From positions 1 through 38,954 of the forward strand of contig JAHJEM010000067.1 in assembly GCA_018825425.1 (NCBI GenBank): a DNA stretch of 38,954 nucleotides, given 5' to 3'. How positions within the stretch are numbered: the stretch's first letter is position 1; each line of letters begins with the position of its first letter. Source of the stretch: Nanobdellota archaeon. GTDB taxonomy: Archaea; Nanobdellota; Nanobdellia; Woesearchaeales; JAHJEM01. A program made the position numbers and the translations under genes. Positions 23,702-37,521 of the stretch are shown here, one piece after another. The notes beneath the pieces were generated by a model. It saw nothing but the letters and a program-made list of their open reading frames with translations. It made no database searches and was not told the origin of the DNA.

Positions 23702-23820
23702 GCCTCTGTAGCATAGCGGCTAATGCGTCTGCCTCGTATTGGAAACAGGTTTCCAATCCTTTGGAAAACAAGTTTCCCAAAGTAAGCAGAAGATCGGGAG
23801 TTCAATTCTCCCCAGAGGCT
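23702..23820 (+). tRNA. tRNA-Thr(CGT) with a 46-nt intron at 37/38 (intron 23739-23784)
   Basis: Acceptor GCCTCTG/CAGAGGC with discriminator T, D stem GCAT/ATGC, anticodon stem TCTGC/GCAGA with loop CT-CGT-A^A, and T arm GGGAG-TTCAATT-CTCCC. CCA is not encoded. Confidence 0.92.
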
Positions 23821-33478: not shown

Positions 33479-34028
33479 GTCTATCTTGAATAAATCGATC
33501 ATGATAAGGCACGGAAGCGGTATTAAGAACTGGGATGATATGGATTACTCAGAACTCATTCGATTGATCAGGCAGGAAAAAGATCTTGAGCTAGACCTAG
33601 CGTGTCTTAAATCAATTAATTTTGATATACTTCGGAATCTAGAGCCTGAATTAGTGATATGTTCGCCTATGACGCGTACCTTGGAAACTGCAAAATTCAT
33701 TGCAAAAGAATTGGGTTTGGAATATCAGATAGATAATAGTCTTCAGGAAATTCACTTTGAAGATTTACCTAAGAGCAAATATGAAAATGGGCCAAAGCAA
33801 ATGATAGATTATCTATTTGAAAAATCATTGCTTCACAAAAATACCTTTGATTGTAAGAAAGTACAAGGCAATGTAATAATTGTTACCCATAGTTTTCTTA
33901 TGCGCCTGATTTACGCTGATCTTTTCAACGTTGATGTCTCGACCCTGAAAGATGATTTGAGATTTAAGACATATTTAGCAGGATTTGCATTGGGTGATGG
34001 CAAAGGTGTGTTTTTGAGAAAAAAATAA
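33450..34028 (+). CDS. Histidine phosphatase superfamily protein
   Basis: IRHG, CSPMTRTLETA, LQEI and IVTHS; overlaps the kinase 3' end. Confidence 0.85.
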   Translation: MAMSQSITNKSILNKSIMIRHGSGIKNWDDMDYSELIRLIRQEKDLELDLACLKSINFDILRNLEPELVICSPMTRTLETAKFIAKELGLEYQIDNSLQEIHFEDLPKSKYENGPKQMIDYLFEKSLLHKNTFDCKKVQGNVIIVTHSFLMRLIYADLFNVDVSTLKDDLRFKTYLAGFALGDGKGVFLRKK

Positions 34029-34044
34029 CCAAAACTTGACCTTA

Positions 34045-34674
34045 TTAAAATTTTAATACGTCCATAACATTCCCTAAATCCTTCTCCTCTATAACAAATA
34101 TAGTATCTGTCCAGCAGCTCATGGTTTCAACTATATTGATCTCCTTATCACCAAACAAGCTATATAGATAGGCCATGACTCCTGGCACATTTTCCAAATC
34201 AGCAGAACTTTTTACTGTGACTTCAATGAGGTTCTCATTTATTCGTATTATCTTGTTCTTGAAGGTTTGCTTTACTCTGCCTAAGAATTCTTGGCTTGTG
34301 ATGACTGTTATGGCATTTACGCCCTCTATTACGCGAAAGAGTTCGTTTTTTGCTTTTACTTCCTTGTTCAGACTCAATAGATTGTTGAAAAATATGTTCT
34401 TTTCAACTACAGCAACAGCTACTTTGTTCTTGATTTCTAGATTTGAATTCTTGAGGATCTGGCGTACCTGATTCTCAGCACCTGGTTTTTTGCGTAGCTT
34501 GTCACCATATCTCCTGCAGGCAATGAGAACTGCATCAAAATGCTTTGCTGGAATCTTGACTTCCTTACATATCTGTCTCGATAGTGCAGAGTAGTTGATT
34601 AACCCAGTTCTCAAGCAATCCTTTGTGCCTTTTGATCCTGAGAGGTATTCCTCAACTGCCCTTTGTATGTTCAT
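34045..34674 (-). CDS. ACT-domain amino-acid-sensing regulator-like protein
   Basis: N-terminal 'DCL..GLINYSALSR.I...AVLIACRRY' and C-terminal ACT 'PGVMAYLYSLF....INIVETMSCWTD'. Start moved to ATG 34674, ~25 nt from the TATA; divergent from argGH. Confidence 0.8.
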   Translation of the reverse strand: MNIQRAVEEYLSGSKGTKDCLRTGLINYSALSRQICKEVKIPAKHFDAVLIACRRYGDKLRKKPGAENQVRQILKNSNLEIKNKVAVAVVEKNIFFNNLLSLNKEVKAKNELFRVIEGVNAITVITSQEFLGRVKQTFKNKIIRINENLIEVTVKSSADLENVPGVMAYLYSLFGDKEINIVETMSCWTDTIFVIEEKDLGNVMDVLKF

Positions 34675-34716
34675 GTGGTATAGCAATGTATCCATGTATT
34701 TAAATGTTTTGTTTCA

Positions 34717-34738
34717 GACATAATTGTATGATTATGTC
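34717..34738. promoter_or_regulatory. Palindromic operator candidate between divergent promoters
   Basis: GACATAAT-tgtatg-ATTATGTC, a perfect 8-6-8 inverted repeat between TATA-like boxes at ~34697-34704 (-) and ~34757-34764 (+). Confidence 0.65.
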
Positions 34739-34793
34739 CTTTTTTAGACGATAATATTTTAAATCAAACCGATTCAACAGGGTTTGAGTTAAA

Positions 34794-34865
34794 ATGAATA
34801 CCTACCAACTATACCTAACAACTGCATCTCTGGTGCAGATTTCTTGTACAGTTAGAAGACGGTAG
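34794..34865 (+). CDS. Putative arginine-sensing leader peptide (23 aa, ends RRR)
   Basis: MNTYQLYLTTASLVQISCTVRRR*; its only Arg codons (AGA AGA CGG) come just before the stop. Lies 71 nt upstream of argG and ~30 nt after a TATA. Confidence 0.6.
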   Translation: MNTYQLYLTTASLVQISCTVRRR

Positions 34866-34936
34866 ATGTAATTCAGTGGCCCACTACTTTTCTTTATGAA
34901 AAAAACAAATTAGTTAAAAATTGAGAGGTAAACAAA

Positions 34937-36199
34937 ATGAAAACACAAAATGAACAAAACAAGAAAAAAATTATCCTCGCGTACAGCGGGGGACTGGATA
35001 CTTCAGTCATATTGAAGTGGATGGTGAACAAAGGATATGATGTCATTGCCTATGTGGCTGATGTTGGACAGCCAGATGATTTTGAGGCAATAAAGAAGAA
35101 GGCTCTCAAGACTGGTGCTAGTAAGGTCTATGTTGAAGACCTTAAACAAGAATTTGTAGAGAAATACATATTTCCTGCAATACAAGCCAATGCCGTGTAC
35201 GAAGGCAGATACTTGCTCGGAACAAGTTTGGCAAGGCCCCTCATTGCCCAGAAGCAGATTGAAATAGCTCACAAAGAAGGAGCTAAGATTGTGTCCCATG
35301 GATCCACTGGAAAAGGAAATGACCAAGTGCGTTTTGAATTGACATATTATGCTATTGATCCAGATATAATTGTATTTGCGCCTTGGAAAGAACAGGAATG
35401 GTTGAATGAATTCAAGGGCCGAACTGATATGCTTGACTATGCAGAGAAGAATGGAATCAATGTTGATCAATCCAAGAAAAAACCTTACAGCGAGGATGCA
35501 AATCTACTTCATATCAGTCATGAAGCGGGAATCCTAGAGGATCCAAAACATCCAGGAGGAGATGAGATACTCAAGTACTGTAAAAGTCTGAAAGATGCAC
35601 CGGATAAGGAGACATTTCTTGAAATCCATTTCAAAGATGGCATTCCGGTTAAGGTTGTCAATACTGCAGACAAGGTCACTAAGACAGAACCATTAGAATT
35701 GTTTACATACATGAACGAACTTGGTTGCGAGAATGGAATTGGTGTTGTTGACATGGTTGAGAATCGTTTTGTTGGTCTGAAAAGCCGTGGAATATATGAG
35801 ACTCCAGGAGCAACTATATTATATGCGGCTCATCAAGACATTGAAGGCATTGCAATGGATCGTGAGGTCATGAGGTTACGTGATATGCTCAGCCCTAAAT
35901 TCGCAGAGATCGTTTACTATGGCTTCTGGTTTTCACCAGAGATGGACTTCATGATGAGTGCAATTCAGAAAAGCCAGGAGATGATTGACGGAATCGTTTA
36001 CTTGTCCTTGTACAAGGGAAATGTAAAGATCCTTGGAAGGGAGAGCCCAAGTAGTCTGTATGACCAAGACCTTGCAAGCATGGACATAGAAGGTGGTTTT
36101 AATCAAAAGGATTCCGAAGGATTCATAAAGATTAATGCAGTACGTCTGAAAGCAAATAAGGCAATCCTAGATAAACACGGGAAAAAATATTTTGATTGA
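34937..36199 (+). CDS. argG: Argininosuccinate synthase
   Basis: [34 protein letters not shown] and [16 protein letters not shown]; GAGGT SD. Confidence 0.97.
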
Positions 36200-36241
36200 A
36201 TTTTATTTTTTTTTTAAGAATAAGGTAAATTGGAGGACAAA

Positions 36242-37429
36242 ATGAAGCTTTGGGAAAAGGATTTTAATCCTAACTCGGAAATTGAAGATTTTACTGTCGG
36301 AGAAGACTACTTGCTAGATCAAAAGCTAATCAAGTATGATGTTATGGTCAACCTTGCACATGCAAAAATGCTTGGCAAGATTGGAATTCTAAAAGTAGAA
36401 GAGGTCGATAAGATATTGAAGGTGCTCGATGAAATCAAAAGTCTGGATGAGAAAGGAGAATTCAAGATATCAAAACAGCAAGAGGATGTTCATACTGCAA
36501 TCGAAGAATTCCTAATAGAGAAACTCGGTGATCTCGGTAAAAAAATTCATACAGCAAGATCACGTAATGATCAGGTCATGACAGATATCCTGCTCTATTG
36601 CAAGGATGAGCTCAAGCAATCAAATCAAACCATCAACCAACTCATCACATTGCTGAAAGCGTTTTGCAAAGAGCACACAGGCATTCCTATGCCTGGCTAC
36701 ACACACATGCAAAAAGCAATGCCCTATTCTGTTGACAAATGGATGGGTGCATTTATTGAAATGCTCAATGATGATTTGAATGCTATAGACTTTGCACAGA
36801 CCGCAATCGACAAGTGTCCTTTAGGAAGCGCCGCTGGATATGGTGTCCCAGAAAATACTATCAAACTTGATATAAAGATGACATCAGACCTACTTGGTTT
36901 TGCGAAACCATTTGATAATCCGTTATACGTTCAGAACAGCCGTGGGAAATACGAGCAAATTGTCCTTTTTGCTCTAAACCAAGCCATGATGACTATGAAC
37001 AAGCTTGCAACAGACTTATTGTTATTCACAACAAGCGAATTTAACTTTTTTTCTCTGCCAGATGAACTATGTACAGGTAGTTCAATCATGCCCCAGAAGA
37101 AAAACTATGACGTACTTGAGCTTGTCAAGGGAAAGACAAAACTTGTTCAGGCCAAGATGAATGAAATATCTTTGCTCTCTTCAAATCTGCCATCTGGATA
37201 CAACCGTGACATGCAGTTGGCAAAAGAGCCGCTAATTCAAGGAATCGATATTTCAAAATCAGTGCTAAAGATCATGATACTTTCGATCAAAAATCTCAAG
37301 CCAAACAAGACAAGCCTAGAAAAAGCCATGACATCTGAACTCTACGCCACAGAAAAAGCCCTGAAACTGGTCAAGAAAGGTATGCCTTTTCGTGAGGCCT
37401 ATAAGGCGGTTTCTAAAGATTTGAAGTGA
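36242..37429 (+). CDS. argH: Argininosuccinate lyase
   Basis: EDVH, KIHTARSRNDQV, PGYTHMQ, GSSIMPQKKN, LPSGYNRD and GMPFREAY. ATG 36242 follows GGAGG. Confidence 0.96.
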   Translation: MKLWEKDFNPNSEIEDFTVGEDYLLDQKLIKYDVMVNLAHAKMLGKIGILKVEEVDKILKVLDEIKSLDEKGEFKISKQQEDVHTAIEEFLIEKLGDLGKKIHTARSRNDQVMTDILLYCKDELKQSNQTINQLITLLKAFCKEHTGIPMPGYTHMQKAMPYSVDKWMGAFIEMLNDDLNAIDFAQTAIDKCPLGSAAGYGVPENTIKLDIKMTSDLLGFAKPFDNPLYVQNSRGKYEQIVLFALNQAMMTMNKLATDLLLFTTSEFNFFSLPDELCTGSSIMPQKKNYDVLELVKGKTKLVQAKMNEISLLSSNLPSGYNRDMQLAKEPLIQGIDISKSVLKIMILSIKNLKPNKTSLEKAMTSELYATEKALKLVKKGMPFREAYKAVSKDLK

Positions 37430-37521
37430 TTGCTTGATTCCATAAAATATTCCATATTTTGGGCATTAAAATGCAATATGGCGTCTCAAACCTCTGAAAT
37501 CTGCTGTCTCAGCCCCTCTAG

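Follow-up and report, generated by a model that had tools for sequence, protein, structure and literature searches.

Leader-peptide attenuators such as trpL, hisL, leuL, thrL and pheL, through which the ribosome senses amino-acid supply, are textbook examples of gene regulation in bacteria. The fungal arginine attenuator peptide, encoded upstream of arg-2/CPA1, acts through a conserved sequence and free arginine on a scanning-dependent eukaryotic mRNA. Here we consider a candidate device of this general kind from an archaeon: a 23-codon open reading frame (ORF) that lies ahead of the arginine biosynthesis genes argG and argH in a 38,954-nt stretch of DNA from a Nanobdellota archaeon of the order Woesearchaeales (assembly GCA_018825425.1, contig JAHJEM010000067.1, positions 1 to 38,954; "the window" in what follows). 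The ORF carries Arg codons in its last three positions and nowhere else, and sequence comparison indicates that 14 leaders from 12 families share a short ORF with an Arg ending, conserved and specific in its position. On balance, we favour the view that the window's ORF is a leader peptide gene, through which the ribosome would read the supply of arginine and probably act on an oligo-U terminator that needs no hairpin.

Several traits are shared with the bacterial attenuators. The operon for the biosynthesis of an amino acid begins with a 5' leader that contains a short ORF, and this ORF carries tandem codons for the amino acid that the pathway makes; among relatives, the cognate codons and their position alone are conserved; a U-run follows in eight of the 14 leaders, and a protein regulator stands alongside, as in the E. 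coli trp operon. Unlike its bacterial counterparts, the archaeal leader has neither a hairpin pair of terminator and antiterminator nor a match to an Rfam family, its sensing codons are placed directly before the stop, and its ORF starts within a few nucleotides of the predicted mRNA 5' end. With the fungal arginine attenuator peptide it has in common an upstream ORF of roughly two dozen codons before an arginine-pathway gene, and a regulatory event, which here is proposed, at the end of that ORF. In our case, however, the peptide body drifts and the Arg codons are conserved; the two were compared by description. The host itself is another point of difference from bacteria, since archaeal terminators are described as U-tracts without hairpins (PMC8716108).

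In mycobacteria, leaderless short ORFs with poly-cysteine tracts are described as working through a duplex that hides the downstream ribosome-binding site (Canestrari et al., 10.1101/834739). The architecture is similar to ours: a first cistron, leaderless or in our case predicted to be nearly so, in which at least two consecutive cognate codons suffice, a cognate gene downstream that is led by a Shine-Dalgarno (SD) sequence, and several operons of one pathway equipped with the same device. Nonetheless, no duplex hiding the ribosome-binding site is predicted here, the T-run at fixed spacing points to transcription, and the host belongs to another domain of life. Because it fails the defining structural tests of both the bacterial and the mycobacterial systems, we set the archaeal leader apart from either.

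Among the literature matches listed, we found no report of amino-acid sensing by leader peptides in archaea. The archaeal ribosome profiling (Ribo-seq) papers on Haloferax and Methanosarcina and a review on coupling contain no word beginning with 'attenuat', and the Ribo-seq work mentions possible upstream ORFs and gives no function for them. The Arg-ending leaders suggest that in these uncultured archaea the ribosome serves as the gauge of arginine, much as it does for other amino acids in bacteria. The family of 14 leaders offers a mutable test case for three questions: whether archaeal transcription-translation coupling is functional, how U-tract/aCPSF1 termination might be regulated, and how arginine, a costly amino acid, is budgeted in genome-reduced DPANN archaea. 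It also brings to attention a candidate family of arginine-responsive transcription factors.

Arginine codons at the end of short leader ORFs

The leader ORF occupies positions 34794-34865 on the plus strand (23 codons plus stop, MNTYQLYLTTASLVQISCTVRRR; ORF list). The codons proposed to do the sensing span 34854-34862 on the same strand (AGA at 34854-56, AGA at 34857-59 and CGG at 34860-62), and the stop codon TAG (34863-65) follows immediately. A first-pass annotation, made from the bare sequence, had pointed to a 23-codon ORF with Arg restricted to its last three codons ahead of argG-argH, and this arrangement is confirmed in the sequence. The genome to which the window belongs (G000) comprises 1.51 Mb in 143 contigs and is 82% complete with a contamination of 3.3%; the G+C content of the window is 39%. 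Intergenic ATG-initiated ORFs of 10-40 codons number 2251 in this genome. A pair of adjacent Arg codons stands among the last three codons of 23 of them (1.0%), and only two end in three Arg codons, one of which is necessarily the window leader. The Arg ending is therefore unusual; the length of the ORF is not.

Divergent from argG stands a gene for a putative regulator of 209 amino acids with ACT-like domains, which is described further below, and the leader family was assembled through this gene. We compiled 128 regulator-adjacent regions, 91 of them added for this comparison and 37 shared with the preceding ones, among which duplicates are possible; left out were the corresponding places of four genomes that are unpublished, and some 16 matches that were weak, partial or at a contig end. 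These regions hold 238 short ORFs, defined as ORFs of 5-40 codons ahead of the main ORF and on its strand, which is that of the gene divergent to the regulator. Tandem identical residues in the last three codons were Arg in 16 of them, Lys in 5, Ile, Phe and Leu in 4 each, and any other residue in no more than 2. The reverse strand, used as a control, gave tandem terminal Arg in 5/385 ORFs, and compared to the base rate of the genome (23/2251) the 16/238 are clearly in excess (Fisher p 1.5e-07). Three of the 16 derive from an element upstream of the TATA box (AGACGATAA) and hence are no leader peptides, whereas the remaining 13 are located at a predicted transcription start. Together with the locus L029, these make 14 leaders from 14 genomes (G000, G151, G068, G026, G368, G330, G142, G108, G048, G319, G222, G066, G370 and G167) in 12 families.

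The leader ORFs are 7-23 codons long and their N-termini are unrelated. Arg is the penultimate codon in 14/14 and the codon before that in 12/14, while the last codon is Arg in 8/14 and Gln (three leaders), Lys, Leu or Asn in the other six. Taken together, 34 of the 42 last-three positions are Arg (AGA 21, AGG 7, CGG 5, CGA 1), compared to 3 of the 194 positions elsewhere in the ORFs. The stop codon is TAG in 10, TAA in 3 and TGA in 1. A search for short Arg-ending upstream ORFs in related genomes had been proposed as a check in the first-pass annotation, and such ORFs do exist in this family, some of them ahead of argG. Lack of conservation, which it had named as the outcome that would speak against the idea, is not what the 14 leaders display; yet the ORF is absent from five of the eight closest argG loci. 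We consider it somewhat more likely than not that the leader serves as an Arg-codon sensor.

Conservation continues past the stop. In a stop-anchored view of the 14 leaders, and in the core model built with nhmmer, a post-stop block is apparent, which in the window is ATGTAATTCAGTGG (34866-34879, plus strand). Its consensus is TTCATTG, with the CAT core starting 4-10 nt past the stop in 13/14 leaders; the window carries the variant AATTCAGTGG. The core nhmmer model recovers 13/14 leaders and nothing else, so that there seems to be no hidden set of homologous leaders with a broken frame.

This extension beyond the stop raises the question of whether the conserved stretch instead acts as non-coding DNA or RNA, to which the regulator or some other factor would bind, the open frame being incidental. 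Such a site would be in line with the T that precedes the first AGR codon in 13/14 leaders, with the TTTCTT before the Arg codons, whose sequence is conserved although its distance from AGAAG (8, 8, 6 and 0 nt) does not hold the frame, and with the presence of a similar promoter element that reads Arg-Arg-stop. However, all 14 leaders have an ATG at the predicted start whose frame runs through the Arg codons to the stop even though the length varies, the second and third Arg codons alternate between the AGR and CGN families, and no homologous core was found that lacks the ORF. Of the explanations weighed in this work, this is the one to which we give the least credence. An arrest peptide that senses free arginine during termination, comparable to the fungal arginine attenuator peptide or TnaC, also appears very improbable. 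The fixed positions of Arg beside the stop, with an Arg as penultimate residue throughout, and an ORF about as long as known arrest peptides would suit it. But arrest peptides are generally known to need a longer conserved segment than is seen here, where the rest of the peptide shows no conservation and ORF length ranges from 7 to 23 codons, and a ribosome held at the stop under high arginine would favour read-through, the wrong direction for a biosynthetic operon.

The comparison can also be anchored on ArgG, which is present in 79/401 genomes of the order sample. Upstream regions were compared at 59 argG loci, including L050 from the unpublished genome G137, which has no leader. The pattern AGAAGRNNNTAR occurs in three of these (3/58 without L050), namely the window (L001), L026 and L029. 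The block of operator and TATA box is widely conserved among the argG loci, and in many of them argG itself is found at the leaderless position. In the ArgG tree, the window and L026 fall inside a well-supported clade of seven, and L029 falls outside it. Family-level searches around G151, G068, G291, G239 and G105 added L053 only, which is without a leader, and scans of metagenomes and genome contigs added L011-L017, none of which has one.

Promoter, RNA folding and the candidate oligo-U terminator

A weight matrix for the B recognition element (BRE) and TATA box, trained on 227 leaderless genes of this genome, predicts a plus-strand transcription start at 34787 (34786-34788) with a score of 13.0, which is above 99.99% of 200,000 random positions. 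This start is 7 nt upstream of the leader ATG. No further plus-strand site in 34700-34960 scores above 6, and the 241-nt intergenic region contains exactly two strong promoter sites, one with a predicted start at 34787 (plus strand) and one with a predicted start at 34674 (minus strand). Similarly, the model finds no promoter-like site between the leader ORF and argG. Since the sole predicted start precedes the ORF, the latter would open the argG-argH mRNA as its first cistron. A start of argG downstream of 34865, which the first-pass annotation had regarded as fatal to its proposal, is thus not what is found, as far as prediction goes. For 34000-37500, a search of sequencing runs listed none from RNA. 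Across the family, the predicted start lies at 0 to +2 relative to the leader ATG in 5/14 leaders, at -4 to -13 in eight (-7 in the window) and at -25 in one.

The promoter of argGH consists of the BRE-like conserved element AGACGATAA followed by the TATA box TTTTAAAT (34757-34764), together at 34746-34764 on the plus strand according to the alignment and the promoter model; sequence and model place the TATA box of the regulator gene at 34697-34706 on the minus strand. For long ORFs of this genome, TATA-like hexamers cluster 28-32 nt before the start codon, with peaks of 109/847 at -30 and 98/847 at -29, from which leaderless starts appear to be the norm for first genes. A second class of genes has SD-like pentamers that peak at -12 to -10, and an SD-like GAGAGGT precedes argG at 34923-34929 on the plus strand. 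The element AGACGATAA loosely resembles the end of the leader ORF. That the leader arose by tandem duplication of the promoter region was considered and dropped as unsupported, because local alignments were no better than those of shuffled sequences (427, 165 and 32 of 500). An origin from a repeat or mobile element was likewise dismissed, as a blastn-short search of the leader against the whole genome returned chance 13-16-mers only.

The first-pass annotation had proposed competing hairpins in the leader RNA, and stalling dependent on Arg-tRNA that would control the termination or translation of argG. The complementary stretches are indeed present, and a CUGCAUC/GGUGCAG hairpin is part of the minimum-energy fold, but the region as a whole folds no better than shuffled sequences: the fold of 34780-34940 has an energy of -30.9 kcal/mol and a z of -1.04, and 31/200 shuffles fold as well. 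The consensus fold amounts to -0.22 kcal/mol for three leaders and to 0 pairs for all 14. When a ribosome footprint was forced on the Arg codons or on the stop in partition-function calculations (3 and 6 leaders), the accessibility of the argG SD and start was unchanged. In the window it went from 0.37 to 0.36 for the SD window and from 0.63 to 0.62 for the initiation region, and in L026 it stayed at 0.55 and 0.47, respectively. With the unremarkable z, the missing consensus and the insensitivity to a modelled ribosome, the model of alternative hairpins as terminator and antiterminator finds no support. An Rfam search of 34600-35050 revealed no leader family either (best E-value 1.5, all scores far under the gathering threshold). 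One weak lead is a closing helix between the ORF start region and the post-stop block, which beats shuffles in L090, L099 and L195 (p 0.004-0.05) but not in the window (0.12-0.27); for the 14 leaders combined the Fisher p is 0.011.

The same calculations bear on the idea that an Arg-codon sensor acts on the translation of argG, in which case a stalled ribosome would alter the RNA pairing and open the argG ribosome-binding site, in the style of the mycobacterial poly-Cys ORFs. The architecture matches such a device, in that the mRNA would begin with a short ORF that has two or more cognate codons, and the biosynthetic gene after it is led by an SD; the 6/14 leaders that have no T-run 15-30 nt past the stop would be accommodated as well. 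Given that the accessibility of SD and start codon does not respond to a ribosome on the Arg codons, and that pairing between the post-stop block and the main start region is no better than in shuffles (111-806 of 1000), we hold a translational output of this type to be distinctly unlikely.

We now turn to the T-run, here defined as at least five T or as TTTTCTTT. Its presence after the leader had been noted in the first-pass annotation, and we find TTTTCTTT at 34888-34895 on the plus strand, 22 nt past the leader stop, where it could be an oligo-U terminator or a pause site. The T-run starts 18-27 nt past the stop in 8/14 leaders. At 15-30 nt, control short ORFs have a T-run in 29/517 (5.6%; Fisher p 5.8e-07) and 145/4462 cases (3.2%; p 3.9e-09). 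The position kept in eight leaders fits hairpin-free archaeal termination rather than a terminator of the bacterial type. The genome encodes an orthologue of the termination factor aCPSF1 (TIGR03675, 853 bits, cut-off 580). In the study cited above, aCPSF1 binds U-tract RNA, and an 18-nt RNA is bound about two-fold worse than RNAs of 24-36 nt (PMC8716108).

How could such a leader work? Transcription would start at about 34787, and a ribosome would load on the near-5'-terminal AUG at 34794. When charged Arg-tRNA is scarce, the ribosome would stall on the terminal Arg codons (34854-34862) and cover the post-stop block as well as most of the 22-nt spacer that separates the stop from the U-run at 34888-34895, so that RNA polymerase would read through the U-run into argGH. 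With plentiful arginine, the ribosome would reach the stop and leave, and the naked U-rich RNA would allow termination by the U-tract plus aCPSF1, free of any hairpin. The divergent ACT-domain protein and the palindromic operator upstream of the TATA box would probably add a control of initiation. A ribosome shields approximately 12-15 nt beyond its A site and RNA polymerase approximately 14-17 nt of nascent RNA; with these footprints, almost no free RNA would remain behind a polymerase at a U-run 18-27 nt past the stop. Stalling and termination of this kind would account both for the sensing codons being the last of the ORF and for the preserved spacing of the U-run.

Termination at the U-run is an output that we regard as quite possible, although we stop short of expecting it. 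More tentative still is the wider proposal that archaea of a DPANN-type order practise hairpin-independent attenuation, with the stalled ribosome blocking U-tract/aCPSF1 termination, and that an arginine 'ribulon' is built atop a new helical-plus-ACT factor; this ribulon would take in several operons, with argG from both clades, a carbamoyltransferase and functionally unassigned genes. An opposite polarity or a translational output could also be hypothesised.

A number of observations weigh against the sensor pictured here. Regarding the output, the T-run is missing from the 15-30 nt interval in six leaders, and that of the window is interrupted (T4CT3). No RNA switch is predicted in single, consensus or ribosome-constrained folds. 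With the stop directly after the Arg codons, the positions of a ribosome that stalls and one that terminates would be only 3-9 nt apart, and the discrimination between them would consequently have to be kinetic. Regarding initiation, the leader ATG in the window has no SD and lies 7 nt from the predicted start, TATA hexamers do not rise above background at -36/-37 (9 and 12 of 847 long ORFs), and a second promoter is predicted in L026 (score 10.1), from which transcripts would skip the leader. The promoter element AGACGATAA (34746-34754 in the window, with sites in L025 and L026 and also in L024 and L027) is read as Arg-Arg-stop by short ORFs of L001, L025 and L026 that lie before the TATA box, hence a nucleotide motif can mimic the Arg pattern. 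Finally, regarding the distribution, 115/128 regulator-adjacent regions are without a start-proximal Arg-ending ORF, and since the 14 leaders share descent the p-values given above overstate their independence. Of the eight loci with an ArgG identity of 75% or more to the window's protein, only three have the leader, and L024, L028 and L053 place argG itself at the leaderless position. With L029 outside the clade of seven, the leader would be older than that clade and would have been repeatedly lost or replaced.

A rival explanation is that arginine control is exerted by the ACT-domain regulator alone, and that the ORF is kept for a constitutive role (leaderless ribosome loading or protection of a long leader) or simply tolerated, without sensing arginine. 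Regulator and operator occur together in 133/401 genomes of the order sample, compared to the leader ORF in 13/128 regions. The closest relatives, L024, L028 and L053, drive argG leaderless from the same promoter, and L027 has at the same place an unrelated, hydrophobic ORF of 27 codons without any Arg. Nevertheless, a regulator acting by itself leaves unexplained why Arg is specific to the last codons in 14/14 leaders with synonymous variation, and why the post-stop block and the T-run are conserved along with them. We judge this explanation unlikely, and continue to prefer the leader as a ribosome-read arginine sensor.

The putative divergent regulator and the genes behind the leaders

The first-pass annotation was silent on the divergent ACT-domain regulator and its operator. 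The regulator gene lies at 34045-34674 on the minus strand and encodes 209 amino acids (ORF list, with the ORF at 34045-34695, and promoter model). Its start is probably the 8th codon of the ORF 34045..34695, because the promoter model predicts a transcription start exactly at 34674 (score 11.8). An AlphaFold2 model of the protein (mean predicted local distance difference test, pLDDT, 88.9) has five N-terminal helices followed by two ACT-like domains; the helical domain comprises 75 residues and the ACT-like pair residues 78-209. The best Foldseek matches of the ACT part are the regulatory domains of aspartokinases (E 6e-09 to 2e-07 over some 147 columns). Like the ACT sensors of aspartokinases, the regulator is thus modelled with a pair of ACT-like domains, but unlike in those, the pair is fused to a helical N-terminal domain and the gene lies beside a palindromic operator. 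Pfam ACT_7 scores 25.3 bits, below its cut-off of 27; no curated family reaches its cut-off, and sequence search found no solved relative.

The operator candidate is the 22-bp palindrome GACATAAT-N6-ATTATGTC at 34717-34738, between the two divergent TATA boxes. The motif GACAT-N10-16-ATGTC has 12 matches in the genome, of which the operator candidate is the only one at a promoter; there is none upstream of the carbamoyltransferase-like gene on contig C89. The block of operator and TATA box is kept in 7/7 aligned loci. The regulator family was found in 133/401 genomes of the order sample and in 25/401 of the class sample, both tallies including unpublished genomes. Its genes usually stand head to head with arginine-related genes, with a GACA-N13/14-TGTC palindrome in between. 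At 19 or more distinct loci the regulator gene is next to argG, and in G068 it is on the argG contig, approximately 1.6 kb beyond the end of argG. Judging from the modelled fold, the regulator could be an amino-acid-responsive transcription factor that acts at the palindrome, with DNA binding and ligand both being what we infer from fold and context. On account of the divergent promoters, the conserved palindrome and the neighbouring arginine genes, the family is a candidate for a new arginine-responsive transcription factor. All 14 Arg-ending leaders coexist with the regulator, and leader and regulator could form a two-tier control reminiscent of TrpR plus trpL.

In the window, the leader is followed by argG, encoding argininosuccinate synthase (34937-36199, plus strand; NF001770, 548.5 bits, cut-off 334), and argH, encoding argininosuccinate lyase (36230-37429, plus strand; Lyase_1, 4.5e-47; ASL_C2 at 26.5 bits, just under its cut-off of 27.3). 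Besides the window, argG is downstream of the leader in L026 and L029. Other leaders precede other genes. Directly behind those of L090 (908-1219, minus strand), L127, L139 and L146 is an ORF of about 104 amino acids with an HExxH motif, for which neither Pfam nor NCBIfam gave a match; in L090/L007 the operon continues from this ORF to an argG of a distant clade. In L099, the leader is followed by a 40-amino-acid ORF and then by a distant-clade argG. The leader of L195 is ahead of a carbamoyltransferase that is closest to N-acetylornithine carbamoyltransferase (PF02729 1.4e-25; NF003384 9.7e-39). A conserved ORF of about 250 amino acids with the N-terminal motif ESGHIYT, to which no family matched, stands behind the leader in L098 (508-1254, minus strand) and L153, and also adjoins the regulator at L097:2303-3070 (plus strand). 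For L123, L134, L153 and L172, 581 nt of each were examined, and within these the downstream ORFs of L123, L134 and L172 have no assignment. The conserved genes of unknown function that share the leader may belong to arginine metabolism. A near-miss, with a leader that ends in RRLL and lies at an atypical distance, is present in L128.

Elsewhere in the arginine metabolism of this genome, the ADI family was not found, at a completeness of 82%. A census detected 14 tRNAs, with tRNA-Arg(TCT) among them, which is uninformative. Neither argG nor the regulator was found in the six other genomes of the window's family. A patchy cluster of argG and regulator suggests lateral acquisition or a mixed bin, considering the contamination of 3.3%. 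A second copy of argG, truncated at a contig end, is located on contig C110 of the same genome (1381-2457, minus strand), with a protein that is 79% identical.

Some loci deviate from the common layout between promoter and argG. The Arg-free, leaderless ORF of L027 (G362) extends from 126 to 40 nt upstream of argG, and its predicted start is 2 nt ahead of the ATG. In L039/L013, where the interval between TATA box and argG is about 190 nt, the leader is replaced by a stretch of about 150 nt bounded by an 11-nt inverted repeat (GTTAAACCCTT ... AAGGGTTTAAC), which could either form a structured RNA or be a small insertion. In the metagenome contig L016, whose argG is 83% identical to that of the window, unrelated sequence on the opposite strand takes the place of regulator and operator. 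Within the window, the sole Rfam match at the gathering threshold is a tRNA gene of 119 nt at 23702-23820 on the plus strand (56.2 bits), presumably with an intron.

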